A stretch of 16,680 nt of DNA from Candidatus Heimdallarchaeota archaeon (lineage in GTDB: Archaea; Asgardarchaeota; Heimdallarchaeia; Heimdallarchaeales; Heimdallarchaeaceae), in the NCBI GenBank assembly GCA_016840095.1, contig JAEOSZ010000032.1, positions 1-16,680 of the forward strand, read 5' to 3'. Under the pieces are notes generated by a model. It saw only the letters and a program-made list of their open reading frames with translations. It did no database searches and was not told where the DNA came from. The position numbers and the translations under genes are program-made. This document shows positions 120 through 15,875 of the stretch, piece after piece (position 1 is the stretch's first letter; the number at the start of each line of letters is the position of its first letter).

Positions 120-1010
120 TTAACTTCTTAGTTTGAATTCTTCATACCTTGGATAGAGAGTAACCATTACTGCACCTTTACCAATTGAGCAAACTACTGA
201 TGGTGGAATCGGCCAAACTGTTTCATCACCAATTTCCATTTGATTTCTAACAGCTTCGCTAAGATATGCAGCTTTATCCAAATCATTTGAATGTGTAATT
301 AACATATCATATTTGATTTCAGGTTTGGATACTTCCCTTAATTGCTTTAGTATTTTCTTTATAGAGCCTTTGAAACCTATACCTCCTCCAAAACCTATAA
401 CACCTTTATCCATAGGAATATCTGATATTGGTTTTAAATTTAGAAGCTTAGTAACAATAGTCATTTTAACATCCTTACGAACTTTCCCTGTTCTAAACAG
501 AATAGAAAAATCTGCTGAAACACCTATTGTATAAATATAGGGTTTGACATCATCATAAAACTTCAAAATGTCTTTAACACCCTTTCCTTCATCTATCATT
601 TTCATAGCATATAATATGAATACTGCTTGACTAGGTGCTGCATAATCTGTTGAATATAAGTGAACATTTATCTCATCTTTGATTCTTTTTTGAGCAGATC
701 TTGCAGAATTAACTTGATTGGAAATTTTGGTTGTCATAAATGGATAGATTATATCTGTAAAACCTTCTTTTATTGCTTGATCAAAAATAGCAGATGCATC
801 TGAAGGAGGAGCCAAACTTGTTGATGGTACAGGATTTATTAGATGAAAATTATTAGTAAAATCTAATGTATCTATCTCAGTTAAATCTTTCTTGTATTCT
901 CCTTCTATAGCGATTTGTACTTCGAAAGGGGCAATATTATGTTTTTCACAGAAATTTAGAGGTATTGTTGCAGTCGAATCAACCATTAATTTAATTTTCA
1001 CAAGACTCAA
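120..1010 (-). CDS. DegV/FakB family fatty-acid-binding protein (divergent)
   Basis: Typical DegV length and motifs: N-terminal KIKLMVDST, PSTS, KIS, LLNLKPI, ITH, and C-terminal SVVCSIGKGAV. The start is TTG 1010 or GTG 1001 (MKIKLMVDST). Confidence 0.85.
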   Translation of the reverse strand: MSLVKIKLMVDSTATIPLNFCEKHNIAPFEVQIAIEGEYKKDLTEIDTLDFTNNFHLINPVPSTSLAPPSDASAIFDQAIKEGFTDIIYPFMTTKISNQVNSARSAQKRIKDEINVHLYSTDYAAPSQAVFILYAMKMIDEGKGVKDILKFYDDVKPYIYTIGVSADFSILFRTGKVRKDVKMTIVTKLLNLKPISDIPMDKGVIGFGGGIGFKGSIKKILKQLREVSKPEIKYDMLITHSNDLDKAAYLSEAVRNQMEIGDETVWPIPPSVVCSIGKGAVMVTLYPRYEEFKLRS

Positions 1011-1118: not shown

Positions 1119-1991
1119 TTAGAAAGTATTATCTTCTACTTTTTTCATTTCTTCTAAGATTATCTTAGCAAAAGCTTCATTGTGTGTATCATTTTTGAAA
1201 GGAACAGGTCTATACTTTGCTCCAGGAATCATGCCAACCATTTCTTCTATTGATCCTGTATCATGTTCCGGATCATCTTGAGCTCCAACAATGAACACTG
1301 GAGATTTGATGTTTTTGACAGATTCCTTATTCATCTCATAGTCACACATTAACATCTCCAAATTTCTCATCCATTTCAGTTGGCTTTTTTGCAACATCCT
1401 ACCTAAAGTATGTATTCTACTTTTACCGGATTCTTTATCTCTTCTGAATTTTACTTTGTAAATTAAGTACACAATGGGTTTTACTATAGTTACAAACCAG
1501 TGAGGTAACAATCTTGCAGCTGTTTTTGCTTTAGTATTCTCTTTATAATACTTCTGTGGCGAGGAATGAACTGACAAAAATGGCTGTATATTATACTTGC
1601 TCATCGCTTCAAGTACTCCAACGGAAGCTATAGAAGAACCAGTGAACACGCATTCTTCAGGTTTTATTTGAAGTTCTTCTATTGCTTGAGCAAAATCTTC
1701 TCTTAAGGTATCAACGGTGTAAGCTATGTTGTTTGGTGGAAAAGAAGAAAACTCCTTCTCCCTTGATTCGATAAAAATGACATTATGATTCTTTCTTAGT
1801 AAAGGTATAGATTCTCTCCAAAGATAAATATACGAGATGTATCCTGAATAAAAAATAATATCTCGAGTCATCTCAGTTTTTTCATCTGCTTGCAAAGTTA
1901 GTACTCTTAATTTAGCTCCATTAGGTAAATTTACAATAGTTTTCTTTGTTTCATTTTCGAGAGCATATTCTTTCTTTGGACGTCTAACCAT
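1119..1991 (-). CDS. Alpha/beta fold hydrolase
   Basis: IIFYSGY oxyanion strand, W in YLWRE, FIESRE, YTVDTLREDFAQAIEEL helix, nucleophile elbow variant GSSIA, acid in PVFIVGAQDD, and His near the C-terminus (NDTH). Confidence 0.85.
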   Translation of the reverse strand: MVRRPKKEYALENETKKTIVNLPNGAKLRVLTLQADEKTEMTRDIIFYSGYISYIYLWRESIPLLRKNHNVIFIESREKEFSSFPPNNIAYTVDTLREDFAQAIEELQIKPEECVFTGSSIASVGVLEAMSKYNIQPFLSVHSSPQKYYKENTKAKTAARLLPHWFVTIVKPIVYLIYKVKFRRDKESGKSRIHTLGRMLQKSQLKWMRNLEMLMCDYEMNKESVKNIKSPVFIVGAQDDPEHDTGSIEEMVGMIPGAKYRPVPFKNDTHNEAFAKIILEEMKKVEDNTF

Positions 1992-2012
1992 AATTCTGAT
2001 TTTATCATAGGA

Positions 2013-2028
2013 TATAAAAAGTTTCTAT
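2013..2028 (-). promoter_or_regulatory. BRE/TATA-like promoter (GAAAC-TTTTTATA) for the 1119..1991 gene
   Basis: TTTATA ends 21 nt upstream of the ATG at 1991 and is preceded by a purine-rich BRE-like stretch, which fits a leaderless archaeal transcript. Confidence 0.5.
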
Positions 2029-2116
2029 TGAGATAAACAAGACTTAGAGCTTATGGATTGTATTTTCAAACTTTTGTAAGAATGAAACAAAAAAAGTTTA
2101 TTAACTGCCTTCCATA

Positions 2117-3037
2117 ATGAGCTTAGTGATTCAAATGGATAGGTTTTCTCAGACGATTACACTCAGTGATGGTAGAACTCTAGGATTTGCAGAGTATGGC
2201 AATCCTAATGGGAAACCTATTCTCTATTTTCATGGAAATCCAGGAACTAGAACTGAAGCAAAAGTTGCAGAATTGACTCTTGCTAACGAAGATGCTAGGA
2301 TCATATCAGTAGATAGACCAGGATTTGGTTTATCTGATTTTAAGAAAGATAGAACCATTTTAGATTGGCCAGATGATGTTGAAGAACTAGCTGATTCATT
2401 AGGTTTGAAAACATTTCCAATTCTAGCTGTTTGTGGAGGAGCTCCATATGCCTTAGCTTGTGCATATAAGATTCCTGAGAGATGTATTTCTGTAGGTATT
2501 ATAGCTGCAATGGGTCCCGTAAATAGACTTACTAGAAGATTAGATGGTGTTAGTAAAAGAATGGTTTTTGTTAATAAACGATTACCCCTTGTATTTAGGT
2601 TCTATTTTTGGTATAAGATGGCAAGGCATGCTAGGTCAAATGATGAAACAAGAATTAGAAAAAGGATGCTTATCCATGTTACTAAGAATTTTTCAAAACC
2701 TGATAGTAGATTATTGATAAAAAAACCAAAAATCATAGATGTTCTATGCGAAAGGATGCGAGATGTAGGGAGAATAAGTACAAAAGGAGCAGTTTTTGAT
2801 CGCAAACTAATTTTTCGTAACTGGGGCTTTAAACTAGAAGAATTATCAAAGAAAGTCAAAATATTCTTATGGCAAGGTTATTTTGATAAAACAGTTCCAA
2901 TTTCCATTGGTAGATATATGGCGAAAAAAATTCCCAACTGTATAGCTAAATTCTTTCCAGATGAGGGACATATATCGATTTGTGTTAACCAAATGAACTA
3001 TATTGCTAAAAGTTTAACTTCTGCATTAAGTGAATAA
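2117..3037 (+). CDS. Alpha/beta fold hydrolase (Abhydrolase_1-like) with Cys at the nucleophile position
   Basis: LSDGRTLGFAEYG, YFHGNPG, DRPGFGLSD, elbow AVCGG (family norm GxSGG), WQGYFDKTVP (Asp) and DEGH (His). The real start may be ATG 2135 (TTTATTAA at 2097-2104 and GTGAT just upstream). Confidence 0.92.
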   Translation: MSLVIQMDRFSQTITLSDGRTLGFAEYGNPNGKPILYFHGNPGTRTEAKVAELTLANEDARIISVDRPGFGLSDFKKDRTILDWPDDVEELADSLGLKTFPILAVCGGAPYALACAYKIPERCISVGIIAAMGPVNRLTRRLDGVSKRMVFVNKRLPLVFRFYFWYKMARHARSNDETRIRKRMLIHVTKNFSKPDSRLLIKKPKIIDVLCERMRDVGRISTKGAVFDRKLIFRNWGFKLEELSKKVKIFLWQGYFDKTVPISIGRYMAKKIPNCIAKFFPDEGHISICVNQMNYIAKSLTSALSE

Positions 3038-3106
3038 ACACTTCCTGAAGAATCCCTAGCTCAAAATTAATAATAGTATAGTAGGATATCATCTTGTTGA
3101 GATTAT

Positions 3107-4339
3107 ATGTTTGATAAAATTCTTCGCACAAATACATTTGAATTTGAACTTATCGAACGAGCTTCTGGTTCATGGATATATGATGTAAATGGCAAGAAGT
3201 ACCTAGACTGTGAATCTGGAATGTGGTGTACAAATCTGGGACACAATCATCCAACGATAGTAGAGACTATCAAAGAGCAGTCTTCAAAGATTATACATAG
3301 AAATAAAGGATTTTTGTGCCCCATTACAATTGAAGCAGCTGAAAAGTTATTAGATTTTATCACTGATAAGTTCGATAAGGTTACATTTCTGAACAGCGGA
3401 AGTGAAGCTGTTGAATTTGCAATAAACTTTGCAAAAAAGATTACAAAAAGAAAGAATGTTCTATCTTTAGAGAATTCATATCTTGGCGCTTTTGGCATAG
3501 CACGAGACCTATCATTTACTTCATCAGAAAATGAGGAGTTTAAACTAGAATTTCCTGTATGTGGGAGGAATGAATGTGAGAATCTAGATAGGTTTTTACA
3601 GAAAGCTTACAAAGTAATTGATAAGCATGCAGATGATATTGCCTGCTTTGTTCTAGAACCTATCATGGTTGGAGGAGGAGTTCTTAGACCTTGTTCGAAA
3701 TTTATTCAACCTATTTGTGACAAAATGAAGGAAATTGGTGCTTTAGTTATTATAGATGAAGTGACAACTGGTTTTGGGAGAACTGGTAAGAAATTTGGAT
3801 ATGAACTTTTTAAGATCACTCCTGATATACTCGCTCTTGGTAAAGCATTAGGTAATGGCTATCCAGTTAGTGCAGTTGTTACAAAATCTGATCTGGAAGC
3901 TAAACTAACTTCTTCAGAATTATATTATGCACAATCACACCAACTTGATCCTTTAGGGACAAGCATAGCTATGAAAGTTATCGAGGTGTTTGAATCAGAA
4001 GATATTTTAGAGAAACTTAAACCAAAAATTGTTGAACTATTTTCATTTCTGAAAACCTTGTCTCACCCATCAATAATCGATGCAAGATCGTTTGGTTTTA
4101 TTTTTGCAATAGAGTTCAAAGAATATGGAAATAATAAAACTAAGGAACTAATATTAAGAATTAAGGATTCTCTACTCCTTGAAGGAGTTATGATTGGGTT
4201 TAGCACAGCAAAAAATCTGATAAGGTTTCTACCTCCTTTGACCATTTCAGATGAAGAAATCAAATTCTTGAAACAGAAAATTACGAAAGTATTGGAGGAA
4301 ATAAAAAGTAGTGAATTGGATACTAATCCAATCCCTTAA
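3107..4339 (+). CDS. Class III PLP-dependent aminotransferase (2,2-dialkylglycine decarboxylase-like subfamily)
   Basis: GKKYLD..SG.W..NLGH, NSGSEAVE, LEPI, IIDEVTTGFGRTG, PDILALGKALGNGYP (PLP lysine), IRFLPPL. Confidence 0.93.
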   Translation: MFDKILRTNTFEFELIERASGSWIYDVNGKKYLDCESGMWCTNLGHNHPTIVETIKEQSSKIIHRNKGFLCPITIEAAEKLLDFITDKFDKVTFLNSGSEAVEFAINFAKKITKRKNVLSLENSYLGAFGIARDLSFTSSENEEFKLEFPVCGRNECENLDRFLQKAYKVIDKHADDIACFVLEPIMVGGGVLRPCSKFIQPICDKMKEIGALVIIDEVTTGFGRTGKKFGYELFKITPDILALGKALGNGYPVSAVVTKSDLEAKLTSSELYYAQSHQLDPLGTSIAMKVIEVFESEDILEKLKPKIVELFSFLKTLSHPSIIDARSFGFIFAIEFKEYGNNKTKELILRIKDSLLLEGVMIGFSTAKNLIRFLPPLTISDEEIKFLKQKITKVLEEIKSSELDTNPIP

Positions 4340-5321
4340 CTACATCTTCAGGAAGGTAAACATCAAATTCACAGATTGAATCTCCGTTTATAACTGTCTT
4401 AACTGTTTTAACTTCTATAGGTTGATCTAGAACGATCTGCCAATAATTCTTGTAATATCCACCACTACAATTACAGAAAGCATTTGGGATTTCGTCAACT
4501 GTTCCATCTTTGATTGATTCTTTTACCCAAGGACAATGACAATAATAATATGCTTTTAGCATTTCATCCTCTTCATTAAGATACTTAATTATTTCATGAG
4601 GAATTTTTGAAACTGTAAGTATGTTTCCTTTTCGTATACCACCTTCAATTCCAGGCTGATTTCTCACATAATCCAAAACACTTTTGTCTATTTCTTGAGT
4701 GAAAAAGAGTGTTCCTTCTTTCTCATGTTGTTCAAGCGATGCAATGAATCTTTTCCTTTTTTCAGCTAAAAACTCATCAATATTCTTCGAATTAAGAAAT
4801 CTTTCTCTATCAGGTTTCCTCCATTCGTAATATGGATCTCTCAAACCTTTAGCTAAGAATTCTACGCAAGTTTGTTCTCCAACTTTGTCATGAAATCTCG
4901 ATATCAATTTCTTAGTATATTCAGGTTTATCTTTAGGTTCAATACCTAATGGAGGTACATTGAGATCTTGGAAAATTTCATCTCTGAATTCCTGACTATA
5001 TTCATCTATTAATCGTTTAGAGAAGTTAACCATTACTTCACTTCCATCAAAAACTTCTCTCCCCAACTTAACCAGTTCATGATTGTTGATAAATTGTCCG
5101 AAAATAATAAAGACTTCATAAGTAAAGCCCGAATTTCGGTTTTCACCAATTAATACCTTTGAGAAATCGTAAAAATCTTCAGATTCAGCAGTTTCGAAAT
5201 TTCTATTTCTATCTAGTAAGAATTTTGAATAATCTTCAAGTAGTGTTATAGCTTCTTGAACTGCCTCAGGAGGATTTTCTTTATCAATTAATCTTTGCTT
5301 AAAACGTTCTAATATTTCCAT
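4323..5321 (-). CDS. Cys-rich DUF6144/V4R-like domain protein with an extra helical N-terminal domain
   Basis: C-terminal YCHCPW...FCNCSGGY...W...PIEV....TVINGDSICEF pattern. ATG 5321 is preferred over GTG 5330 because GTGAT sits as an RBS just upstream. Overlaps the 3' end of the aminotransferase by 17 bp. Confidence 0.65.
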   Translation of the reverse strand: MEILERFKQRLIDKENPPEAVQEAITLLEDYSKFLLDRNRNFETAESEDFYDFSKVLIGENRNSGFTYEVFIIFGQFINNHELVKLGREVFDGSEVMVNFSKRLIDEYSQEFRDEIFQDLNVPPLGIEPKDKPEYTKKLISRFHDKVGEQTCVEFLAKGLRDPYYEWRKPDRERFLNSKNIDEFLAEKRKRFIASLEQHEKEGTLFFTQEIDKSVLDYVRNQPGIEGGIRKGNILTVSKIPHEIIKYLNEEDEMLKAYYYCHCPWVKESIKDGTVDEIPNAFCNCSGGYYKNYWQIVLDQPIEVKTVKTVINGDSICEFDVYLPEDVVKGLD

Positions 5322-5521
5322 GTCTATCACAGGCTAGTTTAGTATTAAAACACTTAAAAGAAGTACGTATATAAAGATGAGAATTTTTCTGTAAGGTGAG
5401 TTTAAAGTTTTGGTCCTTCTACACATAATGAGTGAAAAGAGTTTTTCATTAAAGATAAAGTAAGAATTTATGAGTATGAAGCAACTTTCATTGAGAAAAG
5501 AATGGGATAAGTTAACACATC

Positions 5522-5530
5522 TTTTTATAA
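5522..5530 (+). promoter_or_regulatory. TATA box (TTTTTATAA) for the aldo/keto reductase gene
   Basis: Lies 24 nt upstream of ATG 5555, with no RBS in between. Confidence 0.5.
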
Positions 5531-5554
5531 TAATATATAATTTGTGTCAATATT

Positions 5555-6472
5555 ATGAGTGAAAATAGATCTAAAAAGTTAGGTAACCTAGGTGTGAATT
5601 TAAGTACTCTAGGATTAGGTGTAGAACATTTTGCTAAAGGTGTTGGTAAAGTAAAACATCTTACTAGAGATGAAAACAGTAAACTCATACTTGATGAAGC
5701 TTACAGATTAGGTATAACACACTTTGATTTAGTATTTGATCTACCTTATTTCTTCAAGGTTTTCAGAGATTTCAGCATTGATAAACGAGAGAAAATCACA
5801 TTTACAACTCATATTGGTAATGTCTTCAATGAAGCAAAAGGTAAACCTTACAAAATCAGAACTTTAGAAAAAATCAAAAACTCTTTTGATCAAAAATTGG
5901 AAACTCTAGAAACAGATTATACCGATATAGGACTGCTTCAATATGTAAAGAATGATGAAGACTATAACAAAGTTGTAAAAAATGGTCTAATTGAATACGT
6001 TGAAAATCTAAAAGAAACTGGTAGAGCTAAATCTATAGGAATAAGTTCTCATAATCCAATCTTTCTGAAAAAAATGATACAAAATCATGATTTTGATGTC
6101 ATTATGACTGTTATTAATTTTGCAACAGGTGTCAGAGAAACTACACTAGAGTTAATCGAAGAGTGTAAAAATAATAACATCTCTCTCATAGCAATAAAGA
6201 ATCTTCTCAAGGGTAAATTGTTCACAACAAAAAAAACTGAATTAGGTTACTATTACTCTGGTGGTAGCAAAATTGAGCTTAAATTAAATGAAGCTGCTAC
6301 ACCTGCACAATGTTTCAATTATGCTCTAGATTTGGGGGTTGATTCTGTAGTATTTGGTGTTCAAACAGTAGAGCAGCTTCAAGAAAACATTCAATCTTTC
6401 AAAAGAGAAGAAAAGGTAGATTATAGTCAACTTGTTGAGATTTTTGACCAGATAATCAATAACACTGTGTAG
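5555..6472 (+). CDS. Aldo/keto reductase family protein
   Basis: KLGNLGVNLSTLGLG, GITHFD, LETLETDYTD, LKETGRAKSIGISSH, IAIKNLLKG, SVVFGVQTVEQLQENI. Confidence 0.9.
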   Translation: MSENRSKKLGNLGVNLSTLGLGVEHFAKGVGKVKHLTRDENSKLILDEAYRLGITHFDLVFDLPYFFKVFRDFSIDKREKITFTTHIGNVFNEAKGKPYKIRTLEKIKNSFDQKLETLETDYTDIGLLQYVKNDEDYNKVVKNGLIEYVENLKETGRAKSIGISSHNPIFLKKMIQNHDFDVIMTVINFATGVRETTLELIEECKNNNISLIAIKNLLKGKLFTTKKTELGYYYSGGSKIELKLNEAATPAQCFNYALDLGVDSVVFGVQTVEQLQENIQSFKREEKVDYSQLVEIFDQIINNTV

Positions 6473-6523
6473 TGAAAAGTCACAGAAAAAAATAAAGGAC
6501 ATGAACGAGTTGATATTTCATAT

Positions 6524-8131
6524 ATGAAAAAGCATCACAAATTCGAAAATAAGAAACTTGTTGATCTAAATCCAAAACCATTGAAAAAACAGATACTTGA
6601 TAATATCTTCATTTTTGGTCTTATTAATCTGCTCTGGTTTCTATTTCGTACTGGAAAAAAACCTTCTAGAATAACCTATCCTTGTCAACAAGAAGCTCTA
6701 AGAAATGCTTCAATTGGACTGGGTTCAGTTATCCCAATTATATCTCTAACAGCTGTTTTTACAACTATTAAGTCTTGGTTCTCTTACAGTAGATTCTTTA
6801 TTGTATTCATACTAACCGTATCAACTGTTGGAACTGCAACAGTCTCTTATACAGTAAATTCTAACCAGGAAGTTTTTCTAGACATTAGCTCCATAGAGTC
6901 AGAATCAGATGATGCTTCAGATATTTTCATTGTTAATGGTGAAGAAGTTGCTCATATTAACAACTTAATTGACTTAATGGGAACACAGAATCTAACTTTT
7001 TATCAAACTACTTTAATTGATGTTAATCAAGGTCCCAATGGTTTAATTGCATCTGATGATGTAGTTTTGCTCAAAAACAACTGTCAGTGGGCAAAAAGAG
7101 GTGGAACCAACACTGATATGATTAAGGAATTAATTCAAGCTATTATCAATCATCCTGAAACCTTCACAGGAGAAATAGTTATTGCTGATAATGGGCAAGG
7201 TAGGGGAGCTATGGATTGGAGTGATGCTAATTCAGAAGATAAAAGCCAGTCAGTACAAGATGTAGCAGATTTCTTCAGTTCAGAATATCAAGTTTCAGCT
7301 TATCTCTGGGATGACATTAATAACATTGAGGTAGACGAATACTCTCAAGGAGACCTGAATGATGGATACGTAGTTTATGACATTCCAGATCCTGAAACAG
7401 GCATATATGTATCATATCCCAAATTTGAAACAGATTTTGGCACAAAAATCAGTTTTCGAGATGGTATTTGGAATGGTACAGATTACGAAGAAAAACTCAA
7501 AGTAATCAATCTTCCAGTGTTGAAATCTCATTCAGGTTTTGGTGTTACAGCAACAACTAAGCACTATATGGGTGTACAATCTCAAGGCGTAGCTAATGGA
7601 CATGACAGAATTGCTGCAGGAGGAATGGGTACTCTAATGGTTGAACTTGGCATCCCAACATTAAATATCATTGATGCGATTTGGGTTAATGCTAATCCTG
7701 AATCTTCAGCTTATGAAGGACCTGGAACAAGTTATACAGAAGCTACTCGAGTCAATGTACTTATTGCAGGTATTGATCCAATAGCTTTAGATTATTGGTC
7801 AGCTAAAAATATACTACTCCAAGCTTCTGAAATGATAGGTTACGAAGACACCTATTCATTAGATCCGGATAGCACTAAAAGCACTGGACTGACAGAAGCT
7901 TTCGGAATATGGCTTAATCGAACAATGGATGAGCTCCTTAGTGCAGGATATAATGTCACTAATGATGAATTAAAGATGAATATTTACTCAAACTCTTTGA
8001 ATATAACTGTAGGACCAATGAACAATAACCAGATTTGGATTTATTTCGGTTCCATTGGAGGAAGTCTCATACTTGTTGGGATAGCAGTACCATATGTATT
8101 GAAGTTCCTTAAAAAAAGAAGAATGAAGTAA
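6524..8131 (+). CDS. Membrane-anchored DUF362 domain-containing protein
   Basis: DDVVLLKNN, TNTDMIKELI, EIVIADNGQG, INLPVLKSH..GVTATTKHYMG and IDPIALD are DUF362-type motifs. There are N-terminal hydrophobic segments with WFLFRTGKKPSRITYPCQ, and a C-terminal TM helix followed by a basic tail. Confidence 0.8.
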   Translation: MKKHHKFENKKLVDLNPKPLKKQILDNIFIFGLINLLWFLFRTGKKPSRITYPCQQEALRNASIGLGSVIPIISLTAVFTTIKSWFSYSRFFIVFILTVSTVGTATVSYTVNSNQEVFLDISSIESESDDASDIFIVNGEEVAHINNLIDLMGTQNLTFYQTTLIDVNQGPNGLIASDDVVLLKNNCQWAKRGGTNTDMIKELIQAIINHPETFTGEIVIADNGQGRGAMDWSDANSEDKSQSVQDVADFFSSEYQVSAYLWDDINNIEVDEYSQGDLNDGYVVYDIPDPETGIYVSYPKFETDFGTKISFRDGIWNGTDYEEKLKVINLPVLKSHSGFGVTATTKHYMGVQSQGVANGHDRIAAGGMGTLMVELGIPTLNIIDAIWVNANPESSAYEGPGTSYTEATRVNVLIAGIDPIALDYWSAKNILLQASEMIGYEDTYSLDPDSTKSTGLTEAFGIWLNRTMDELLSAGYNVTNDELKMNIYSNSLNITVGPMNNNQIWIYFGSIGGSLILVGIAVPYVLKFLKKRRMK

Positions 8132-12831: not shown

Positions 12832-13983
12832 TTAGGAGCGTTTCTGCTTCCTATTTAAAATAGAAACTAACAGTATTCCACCGACAAAAACAGAACCGAT
12901 TGCTATTAAAAGATAAGTAGACACAGGTAAATCTGTCTTTCTCCAATCCTTATTCTGATTTATTGTATAGTATTTTTTCAAAAAAGATTCTAAAGTACGT
13001 CCAGTTATCGATAGACTTGCAACATCAATATTACTCAAATCATCAGAATGAGTGTGATGATAGGTCCACTCTCCATTTATGAAATCGATTATTAAATCTA
13101 TTACAGGAATTCCAATTTCATCAAAAGCTACATGGTCATCTGTTATGTACATTGATTTAGGCTGACTCGGAAAAGCTTCATAATAACCCAATTTAATCCC
13201 TTCGTCAAATATACTATCATGCAATGCTTCGTTAGATCGAGACTCTTTTACAAATTTTAGATTGGATCCACCAACCATATCTAGTAAAATAAAACAATCA
13301 ATAGTTTCAGAAGTGGAATTATAAAAAGAATCTATTTCATTGGCAAACACTATTGAACCTTCTGCCCAACCCCAACCTTGTAAACCGTACATACCTCTGG
13401 AATAACCTTGATCTTCAGCATCTAAGAAAAGAAACCAAAGCTGGCAATCAAGCTCATTTTTATACTCGTATAAAACCCTAGAGAGTTCTAATAACACAGC
13501 TACTCCTGAACCGCCATCATTTGCACCAGGGATAGGGAAACTTTGATTTTCTGTATCTTTTTCTGCAACATTTCTTGAATCCCAATGAGCACTAAGAATG
13601 ACAATATTTTCTTCATGTGGATTTATTTTTCCTAGAACATTCTGACATTGATAACTTGGTTCTCCAGATTTCTGTATGGTAAAATTGTGCGTTACAACAG
13701 TGTCAGTTACATTAAGTAATTCTGCTCTTATCCAATCTGCACAATCATCGTGAGAGGAAGTACCGGGGACTCTGGGACCAAAGGACAACTGAGTTTCAAT
13801 ATCATCATATGCAGCTGTCTCATTGAAATATAGTGGTTGTGCAGCAGAAATCATTGAGAGGCTAAGAGTATTTTCAAGATTTAGATCTAAATCAGACAAA
13901 TTATATTGTAGGTTCATTCCAAGAAGAATCAATAGCAGTACAAAATAACTGAGAAATCTCTTGGATTTTGAATTCACATGCAA
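12832..13983 (-). CDS. M28 family Zn enzyme, glutaminyl-peptide cyclotransferase (QC)-like, with N-terminal signal/TM and C-terminal membrane anchor
   Basis: FGPRVPGT, AHWDSR, GANDGGSGVAVLLELSR, FLDAED, LLDMVG, TDDH, HHT..DD. The start is TTG 13983 or GTG 13977. Confidence 0.88.
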   Translation of the reverse strand: MHVNSKSKRFLSYFVLLLILLGMNLQYNLSDLDLNLENTLSLSMISAAQPLYFNETAAYDDIETQLSFGPRVPGTSSHDDCADWIRAELLNVTDTVVTHNFTIQKSGEPSYQCQNVLGKINPHEENIVILSAHWDSRNVAEKDTENQSFPIPGANDGGSGVAVLLELSRVLYEYKNELDCQLWFLFLDAEDQGYSRGMYGLQGWGWAEGSIVFANEIDSFYNSTSETIDCFILLDMVGGSNLKFVKESRSNEALHDSIFDEGIKLGYYEAFPSQPKSMYITDDHVAFDEIGIPVIDLIIDFINGEWTYHHTHSDDLSNIDVASLSITGRTLESFLKKYYTINQNKDWRKTDLPVSTYLLIAIGSVFVGGILLVSILNRKQKRS

Positions 13984-14036
13984 TATGATACATACCGTAT
14001 TATTAACTTTTTTAATTTAATATATCAAATTAGATT

Positions 14037-14069
14037 AAAAACAAGTGCTCAAGAGCAAACTTGATTTTT
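14037..14069. promoter_or_regulatory. Imperfect inverted repeat in the divergent promoter region (candidate operator)
   Basis: AAAAA-CAAG-TGCTC-aa-GAGCA-aa-CTTG-a-TTTTT; the core TGCTC-N2-GAGCA (14046-14057) is a perfect palindrome. Confidence 0.35.
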
Positions 14070-14091: not shown

Positions 14092-14150
14092 GAAATCTTT
14101 AAATAAATGTACCAAACAGTGAGAAATATCTAGAATCAATAGATGGTGAT
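14092..14150 (+). promoter_or_regulatory. BRE/TATA box (GAAATC-TTTAAATA, TATA 14098-14105) and GGTGAT ribosome-binding site (14145-14150) for the 14157 gene
   Basis: Consensus archaeal TATA preceded by a purine-rich element. GGTGAT lies 6 nt upstream of the TTG start. Confidence 0.55.
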
Positions 14151-14156
14151 GATCTT

Positions 14157-15251
14157 TTGAAGAAAACTACTATTGGAGATTATGTTATTGAACAATTTAC
14201 TATAGAAGAAGCTAATTTTGAGGAATTCTCAAAGTTAATTACTCAAGCCTTCCTAACTGATGAAACTGCACTAATAGAAGGTGCTTCTATAGCATTTTCA
14301 GAAGATACATTCAATATTATGTATGGTGCACCTTCAATTGACAAAGATACTTTTATTCGAGCTATACACAAACCAACAGGAAAATTGGTTGGATTTTTAG
14401 GTGCAATTCCACGCAATCTTTCAATTGAGGGAAAAGTATACAAGTTTTCCGTTCCTTCTTGGTTAAGTGTTCATTCAGAACACCAGAAAAAAGGATTGGC
14501 TAAAGCTATGGGGAGTAAGCTTTTTGAAGTGGGTATAGAGAAGGGGTATGATGGAGGATTTTCTCTTCATGAACCAGAACAACACGGAATTGATGTTTCA
14601 GCAGCTGTAGCTCGAGATAGAAATATTAAGTTCCAGAGAGTTGTAACTCTGACCAAATTTGTAATCAAAGCATTTGATGTAGATAAAGTATCAACAGTTG
14701 TAAGATTGAGATGGTATGAAAAATTAGTTTTCAGATTATTTCAAAAAGTTAAAACGATAAAATCAGACAAAATCAGAAGCTTCAAAGAGGAAGATATTCC
14801 TGAAATGTTCAAAATAATTCAAGAACAAGTTGAGAGAAATCAGATATCTATTGTTCCAGAAATGGAAGATTTCAAATGGATGCTTAAAAATCCTAAAGTA
14901 AATTGTGTGGTTCATGAAGATGATGAAGGTAAAGTTAAAGGATTTATGCTTGCATGGGAGTTCATTCTAGCTGGAATGGGAAACCAGATACCTTATGGAT
15001 GGTTTGATATGATTCATATTCACAGATTAACCAATAAAGAAGCAGGCAAACTAGCATATTATCTCTGTCAAACCTCAGAAGAACGAGGTTGGTATGGTCT
15101 TCAAACCCCATATATACCCTATTTCGACATGAAAGCATTGAAAAAGGCAAGATTCTTCTTTTTTGGAAAAAAAATCAATCTAGATATTTTTAACTTAACT
15201 AATGTAGAAATTCCTGAAAATGTTGACTCATTCTATTTCGATTGGAGATAA
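14157..15251 (+). CDS. Tandem-GNAT acyltransferase, N-myristoyltransferase (NMT)-like
   Basis: GNAT motif A [17 protein letters not shown] preceded by [15 protein letters not shown]. A second GNAT-like repeat begins at [13 protein letters not shown]...[10 protein letters not shown]. TTG start with a good RBS. The GNAT call is strong; the NMT relationship is a by-eye alignment. Confidence 0.85.
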   Translation: [364 protein letters not shown]

Positions 15252-15302: not shown

Positions 15303-15875
15303 TTGACTAACATGGATTCAGCAGGACCTCTAATCAAGGAATTGAAAATCGCGAATATTAATTTTCTAATGTCATTAAAAAATCTTGAACCTAAATTTGC
15401 AACTAAACAAATTCAAAAGGATACAAATCACATTGCTTGGATAGTTGGACATTGCGTTTCACATATGGATAGCTATCTATCATATCATACTGGAAAAAGG
15501 AATTTTTCTCAAGAAGAAAGAGATTACTATGCTTATGGTGTTTCAAAAGATCAGATTATCGAATATCCGTATTCTTTTCGAGATTTAATTGATATGTATT
15601 TGGAAATTTCTAGTGAGTATATACAAATTCTTGAAGGACTCCCTACAGAGAAGTTTCAGCAAATACCATCTGAAGAACAAAAAGAAGTCCTCTCAGATCT
15701 AATTCATAGAATATCCCTACACATTATGGGACATACAGGACAAATAGTCTTACTAAGAAGAATGTTTGATAACCCCTATTGGGGTTTCGTTGGGGGAGTT
15801 TCAGAAAAACAAAGGGATGAATTACGAAAAGAATGGTTAGTTTGGTGGAAGGAAAACAAGTCAGAATTTCCTTAA
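15303..15875 (+). CDS. DinB/YfiT superfamily protein
   Basis: NHIAWIVGH and LHIMGHTGQIVLLRR give the three-His metal site of the DinB four-helix bundle. The start is TTG 15303 or ATG 15312. Confidence 0.88.
   Translation: MTNMDSAGPLIKELKIANINFLMSLKNLEPKFATKQIQKDTNHIAWIVGHCVSHMDSYLSYHTGKRNFSQEERDYYAYGVSKDQIIEYPYSFRDLIDMYLEISSEYIQILEGLPTEKFQQIPSEEQKEVLSDLIHRISLHIMGHTGQIVLLRRMFDNPYWGFVGGVSEKQRDELRKEWLVWWKENKSEFP

Follow-up and report, generated by a model that had tools for sequence, protein, structure and literature searches.

Gene content and signals of the locus

The window, meaning the whole stretch of 16,680 nucleotides that was analysed, carries a gene for a protein of the type of N-myristoyltransferase (NMT), the eukaryotic enzyme by which a fatty chain is attached to protein ends; this gene is listed together with its signals, its parts and its neighbours in Table 1. 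The ORF was confirmed with TTG as the start codon, and all the protein blocks quoted in the initial annotation were found in the translation, with the KLVGF...GLA block running from residue 76 onward (nt 14382-14501). The host had been suspected to be an Asgard archaeon, and the contig was indeed assigned to Heimdallarchaeaceae, the family that also holds the two complete genomes of Ca. Heimdallarchaeum. The gene is present as a single copy in the host genome and is under purifying selection (dN 0.12-0.31 versus dS 1.7-2.8, seven relatives compared). Contigs with most of the gene at an identity of at least 99% were recovered from two marine sediment runs, which may include the source sample.

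Table 1. Features of the window, with positions in the whole stretch
Feature	Position	Strand	Basis or remark
DegV-family gene	120-1010	-	locus L007 has a related gene some 4 kb away from its NMT-like gene
335-aa protein, Cys-rich motif	4323-5330	-	weak DUF6144 match; relatives near NMT-like genes at five other loci
Second, unrelated GNAT-family protein, 330 aa	8144-9136	-	best GNAT match in the C-terminal half
M28 peptidase, glutaminyl-cyclase-like by eye	12832-13983	-	N- and C-terminal hydrophobic segments
Likely archaeal promoter, GAAATC then TTTAAATA box	14092-14105	+	about 55 nt before the start
Shine-Dalgarno-like GGTGA	14145-14149	+	7 nt upstream of TTG
NMT-type double-GNAT acyltransferase gene, 364 aa, TTG start	14157-15251	+	homology, predicted structure and purifying selection
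Ab-loop equivalent, residues 32-47 (F32, D35/E36, G42, F47)	14250-14297	+	residue map, human numbering from PMC7048800
Beta-4 end and CoA loop, residues 100-115 (P100-S101-W102-L103, then HQKKGLA pyrophosphate loop)	14454-14501	+	alignment
Residues 139-154: conserved E139, G144, D146 and helix after beta-5	14571-14618	+	model and alignment
Second GNAT domain, residues 262-323, putative acceptor site	14940-15125	+	many invariant residues at NMT peptide-groove positions
Chain end YFDWR, putative catalytic C-terminal carboxylate	15234-15248	+	W363/R364 superpose on L495/Q496
DinB-like gene	15303-15875	+	downstream of the NMT-like gene
GH20 gene, convergent, cut by the contig end	15872-16680	-	522-529 aa in relatives

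The promoter-like box is common to seven of nine syntenic relatives, as judged by eye. A 13-nt AT-rich inverted repeat (14009-14041, 92% complementary) was absent from the nine syntenic relatives and was therefore set aside as a chance product of AT-rich sequence. The M28 gene, which lies head-to-head with the NMT-like gene, was likewise rejected as its functional partner, on account of the hydrophobic segments at both ends of its product and of an adjacency confined to close relatives. The DegV family is one that we take to be fatty-acid-binding. No conserved operon was found across the loci, and the neighbours (peptidases, DinB, GH20, ABC exporters and others) change by lineage.

Homology to NMT, predicted fold and active-site residues

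In Pfam, the best match of the ORF protein was Acetyltransf_9 (PF13527, 40.8 bits), and no family was assigned to it in NCBIfam. The profile check proposed in the initial annotation held for the first NMT profile and failed for the second one: PF01233 (NMT) matched residues 17-118 above its cut-off (33.9 bits versus 25), and NMT_C (PF02799) matched residues 197-264 under its cut-off (16.6 bits versus 27.9, E 0.0065). The same was observed among the family members, with PF01233 matched at E <= 0.01 by 70 of 72 and NMT_C matched weakly by 10 of 72 (best E 5e-4). The best 31 matches of the sequence search against the PDB were all NMTs, and the family profile matched NMTs in the PDB with E 4e-13 and Eis with 0.55. 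When profiles of the family and of eukaryotic NMTs were aligned globally, the two were collinear over residues 8-361 (E 7.7e-44), and the same blocks were paired as had been matched by eye with human NMT1 at the outset. The identity to NMTs is 12-17%. A likeness to NMT far beyond chance and a full-length homology, as first proposed, were thereby confirmed.

The AlphaFold model of the ORF protein (pLDDT 93.5) was used for structural comparison. The best 50 Foldseek matches were all NMTs. Comparison with NMTs gave TM scores of 0.72-0.78 and, by VIA, Z of 31.4-33.1 and rmsd of 2.6-3.0 over about 335 residues. In the exhaustive structural search yeast Nmt1 (Z 31.5) was followed by MAB_4324 (22.8), 3ddd (20.1), Eis (19.9) and FemX (about 13). 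Residues 1-364 of the model correspond to residues 148-496 of human NMT1, and with the deltaC3 NMT1 structures as the control residue 361 was paired with human 493, so that Arg364 is placed on Gln496, the catalytic chain end (Q496/L455 in NMTs). The chain ends exactly four residues past the Y360 column in all 39 clade members and in 52 of the 59 other prokaryotic members, and W363 and R364 are conserved at 97% and 99%, respectively. The claim that the chain ends at the same place as that of NMT is thus borne out, and from the ranking of the Z values, the Arg364/Gln496 register and the constant end point the protein is to be placed in structure with NMT and not with Eis or FemABX, the alternatives against which it was to be judged. 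A C-terminal residue has also been proposed as the base for Eis (F402) and AAC(2')-Ic (W181), both aminoglycoside acetylators (PMC4964394), and a matching chain end therefore does not identify a protein acceptor.

With NMT (EC 2.3.1.97; PF01233 plus PF02799; human NMT1, yeast Nmt1p) and with the giant-virus NMTs the ORF protein shares the collinear double-GNAT fold, the C-terminal register, the aromatic residues at positions 180 and 192 and the acidic Ab-loop residues, whereas it lacks the FWxTQP arm and has an extra helix after beta-5. The last residue of the model aligns with Eis 402 (M. tuberculosis, PF13527), but the rmsd to Eis is 6.0 and the Eis-family architecture of two GNATs and a sterol-carrier third domain in about 400 aa is not seen, the 364 aa being fully covered by the NMT fold. 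W181 of AAC(2')-Ic, its last residue, resembles R364 in the role of remote base that R364 would have. FemABX proteins are tandem GNATs without the CoA loop that is conserved here, and the ORF protein is not one of them. MAB_4324 (7q3a), the P. horikoshii protein 3ddd, MshD, HisAT and FemABX share the two GNAT lobes (Z 13-23), but most alignments of such tandem GNATs stop at about 345-356, without the returning C-terminal tail; that of 3ddd reaches 364.

The residues of the Gly2 pocket and of the catalyst platform of human NMT1, for example Tyr180, Tyr192, Asn246 and Thr282, were taken from PMC7048800. The positions of Tyr180 and Tyr192 are occupied by F32 and F47 (each 96% F), I245-N246-F247-L248 is replaced by P100-S101-W102-L103 with S101 at the position of Asn246, and the Thr282 platform has no counterpart (L137/H138 there). 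His298, Ser405, Gly470 and Asp471, which we take to form the Ser5 pocket and the downstream groove of NMT, are replaced by I170, L271, F336 and G337. The residues for recognition of Gly, Ser5 and Lys are thus absent, which speaks against the function of a Gly-acceptor NMT; by sequence, the protein is a variant of the NMT kind and not a bona fide NMT. The Y180F/N246A form of human NMT1 keeps 89% of its activity (PMC7048800), so F32 and S101 need not block catalysis. Since the Tyr180 hydroxyl is part of the Gly2 filter and helps to exclude Ala in NMT1 (PMC7048800), F32 and S101 would remove part of the described filter.

The FWxTQP (FWxxQP) N-terminal arm, by which myristoyl-CoA is covered in NMT, was found in 20 of 27 NMTs versus one of 98 prokaryotic proteins, the median number of residues preceding beta-1 being 62 and 3, respectively. 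The segment after beta-5 is about 20 residues long with a helix in prokaryotic members versus nine residues in NMTs; this helix may be the canonical GNAT helix that NMT has lost, in which case the family would be architecturally intermediate. Conservation extends to the CoA loop, which is of the Q/RxxGxA type (G113 96%, A115 97%). As regards the bent C14 acyl pocket of NMT, the alignment shows the small G119, G133 and G134 as conserved and a bulky W102. Invariant residues of the second domain at NMT peptide-groove positions are W267, G273, G281, W282, D284, H287, W312, Q316, P318, P321 and Y322.

Distribution and relation to eukaryotic NMT

The close clade of NMT-like genes (39-88% identity) was present in 26 of 30 genomes of the host's family, in all 12 of a family to which a Gerdarchaeota-labelled genome belongs, and in 10 of 14 of a Loki family. 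It was not found in two further Heimdallarchaeia families, of which 12 and 22 genomes were searched and the second of which is probably Hodarchaeales. In another family, three weak partial GNAT matches were all that 135 genomes yielded. Since the number of candidates scored per genome is limited in these searches, weak members may escape them. A second, distant NMT-like subfamily was found in all seven genomes of three other Asgard families, with two to three copies each (L092-L096), and groups with a Helarchaeota protein. Members with bacterial gene context were obtained from Smithella, Syntrophaceae, Leptospirales and Marinisomatota. When 1.84 billion proteins were searched, 265 matches were obtained, among which a wide prokaryotic family of 330-410 aa, including Thermoplasmata (Thermoplasmatota), Woesearchaeota and Planctomycetaceae, ranked above the NMTs; only four matches came from a word-index search started from the broad alignment. 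The gene is rare outside Asgard: four phylum samples gave 1/161, 4/161, 1/201 and 5/161, with the seed genome counted in every case, and no match was found in the plasmids and viral contigs searched.

Two supposed non-Asgard members were rejected as probably mis-binned, namely 'Zixibacteria' P0063, with Asgard synteny, and 'Bathyarchaeia' L031, whose coordinates equal those of G090 from the host's class. Probable mis-binning was noted for L031, L064 and L135-L137, among them 'Bathyarchaeia' and 'Zixibacteria' contigs with Asgard synteny and a 'Fusibacter' contig with Marinisomatota synteny.

Neither of the two complete Ca. Heimdallarchaeum genomes has an intact NMT-like gene: in Ca. H. endolithica (L068:4405-5907) a TnpB/Cas12f-like ORF splits it, and in Ca. 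H. aukensis (L061:6001-7092) it is interrupted by in-frame stops. With one to four copies per genome, a patchy range and the lack of an operon, this is the pattern of an accessory gene.

In profile comparison the Asgard-rich clade matched the broad prokaryotic family with 4.5e-57 and NMT with 2.9e-25, and the broad family matched NMT with 5.4e-32. In the tree the clade was recovered with 100/100 and contained interleaved Asgard and bacterial genes, its sister (97/93) contained Sigynarchaeota, and NMT was attached by a long branch to an unresolved base. A planctomycete member, folded as the control, matched yeast Nmt1 end to end with Z 32.1; judged by the models, this bacterial protein is as NMT-like as the Heimdall one. 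The NMT-like family is therefore not Asgard-specific.

AU tests were run on 54 rows, and as the trees are unrooted, no direction of transfer is claimed. Of the trees tested, the best one (2.1 lnL over the free tree, p 0.57) had NMT grouped with both the Asgard-rich clade and the sister of that clade, and NMT was placed with acceptable p values also with the clade alone (0.41), with the second Asgard subfamily (0.44) and with a Myxococcota-containing group (0.51). As no placement tried was rejected (p 0.41-0.57), an Asgard origin of eukaryotic NMT is neither shown nor excluded. Heimdall members were among the top scorers against the eukaryotic NMT profile (80-81 bits), but within the clade this score tracks AT-rich composition (rho 0.56, p 2e-4); raw profile scores were discarded as evidence of Asgard affinity for this reason and because the set had been selected with an Asgard profile.

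NMT has to our knowledge been treated as eukaryote-only. Double-GNAT structures of the NMT type, with a chain that terminates at the active site as the defining trait, have already been reported in archaea and bacteria, their activity being untested there, with a protein list that includes Thorarchaeota and Bathyarchaeota (PMC12219266, the HisAT/NAT16 paper, 2025); its supplement holds no Heimdall or Loki protein, and neither a family description nor a sequence phylogeny is given. A subfamily of Borg proteins also matches PF01233 (PMC9879509), and a bacterial source of NMT has been argued from lipid chemistry alone (PMC4917890). A literature search for Asgard and myristoyltransferase, with most subscription journals outside its coverage, found no paper.

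Candidate donors and acceptors

The protein is probably soluble and stand-alone, an N-acyltransferase that depends on acyl-CoA and has the structure of an NMT, and no known family appears closer to eukaryotic NMT than the prokaryotic one to which it belongs. Its most likely function, as the product of an accessory gene, is the N-acylation of an amine from acyl-CoA, by chemistry of the NMT/Eis type and with an acceptor other than Gly. In the proposed mechanism, acyl-CoA would be bound by the N-terminal GNAT at the H109-A115 loop with the backbone amides of W102/L103 as the oxyanion hole, the primary amine would enter the cleft between the domains, whose lining would come from the aromatic and acidic residues that are invariant in the second one, and the C-terminal carboxylate of R364 would deprotonate it through water. 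Proteins that start with Gly are improbable acceptors; a small amine or a short peptide is tentatively rated a little likelier than the N-terminus or a lysine of a protein, which is itself conceivable. Against this reading stand the near-universal retention in two Heimdallarchaeia families under strong purifying selection, which fits a dedicated substrate, possibly a protein, the missing counterpart of the Thr282 platform, and neighbours that give no consistent substrate.

Acylation of protein N-termini or lysines with a non-Gly specificity, for example of Ser-start host Arf-like GTPases, is a less likely reading, although possible. It agrees with the conservation of the second domain at NMT peptide-binding positions, with F32 lacking the hydroxyl discussed above, with Ser being more frequent than any other residue at position 2 of the host's proteins (20.5% versus 6.9% background) and the Met-Ser start of four host Arf-like GTPases, and with the acetylation of peptide N-termini by M. 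smegmatis Eis (PMC4964394). However, published Asgard Arfs bind membranes without myristoylation (PMC11914678; bioRxiv 10.1101/2024.02.28.582541), one of them being from isolate 12F4_9 (PMC11914678), whose genome carries the NMT-like gene (L035), and the failure to find the gene in the family of 22 genomes, the occurrence in bacteria and the lack of a conserved partner gene also weigh against protein acylation.

A donor other than acyl-CoA, such as an acyl- or aminoacyl-carrier protein, or the acylation of an amino-lipid is improbable: AMP-binding ligases stand next to the gene in L069, a DAG kinase near that in L060 and LPG synthase domains next to P0173 and P0160, but lipid-related neighbours do not recur at independent loci, the CoA loop is conserved and the FemABX match is distant. 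In the bacterial locus L069 three AMP-binding ligases follow the gene (1669-6873), and in Smithella it is followed by a 2-oxoacid-dehydrogenase acyltransferase-like gene (L034:7129-8046).

It is similarly doubtful that the Asgard-rich clade is the source lineage of eukaryotic NMT and already acylates protein N-termini, e.g. of Ser-start Arf-like GTPases, in which case NMT would have arisen by loss of the helix after beta-5 and gain of the FWxTQP arm and the Gly pocket. The initial suggestion of a proto-NMT that acylates protein N-termini was not sustained, the family being also bacterial and thermoplasmatotal, its affinity to eukaryotes unresolved and a Gly2 signal lacking in the host. In its strict form, a true proto-NMT with Gly-start proteins as its myristoylation targets and with the eukaryotic enzyme as its direct descendant, it is very unlikely, since the best-tree placement and the two AMP-binding enzymes of the host genome are set against the equally acceptable other attachments, the NMT-likeness of the planctomycete protein, the lost recognition residues and arm, and a host Gly2 content of 3.6% of 1034 proteins (crude gene call) versus 5.8% background, with MGxxxS in two of the 37 Gly2 proteins.

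With the NMT fold and chain end, a generic GNAT helix and neither the myristoyl-CoA arm nor the Gly filter, the NMT-like family provides concrete candidates for the pre-eukaryotic state, and assays of some members would tell whether acylation with long chains, or of proteins, is older than the eukaryotes. A complete Asgard genome of 6.04 Mb (G137) contains one member, and proteomics may be feasible there. The intact NMT homolog in an Asgard archaeon is real, and ideas on how myristoylation arose can usefully be tested with it.
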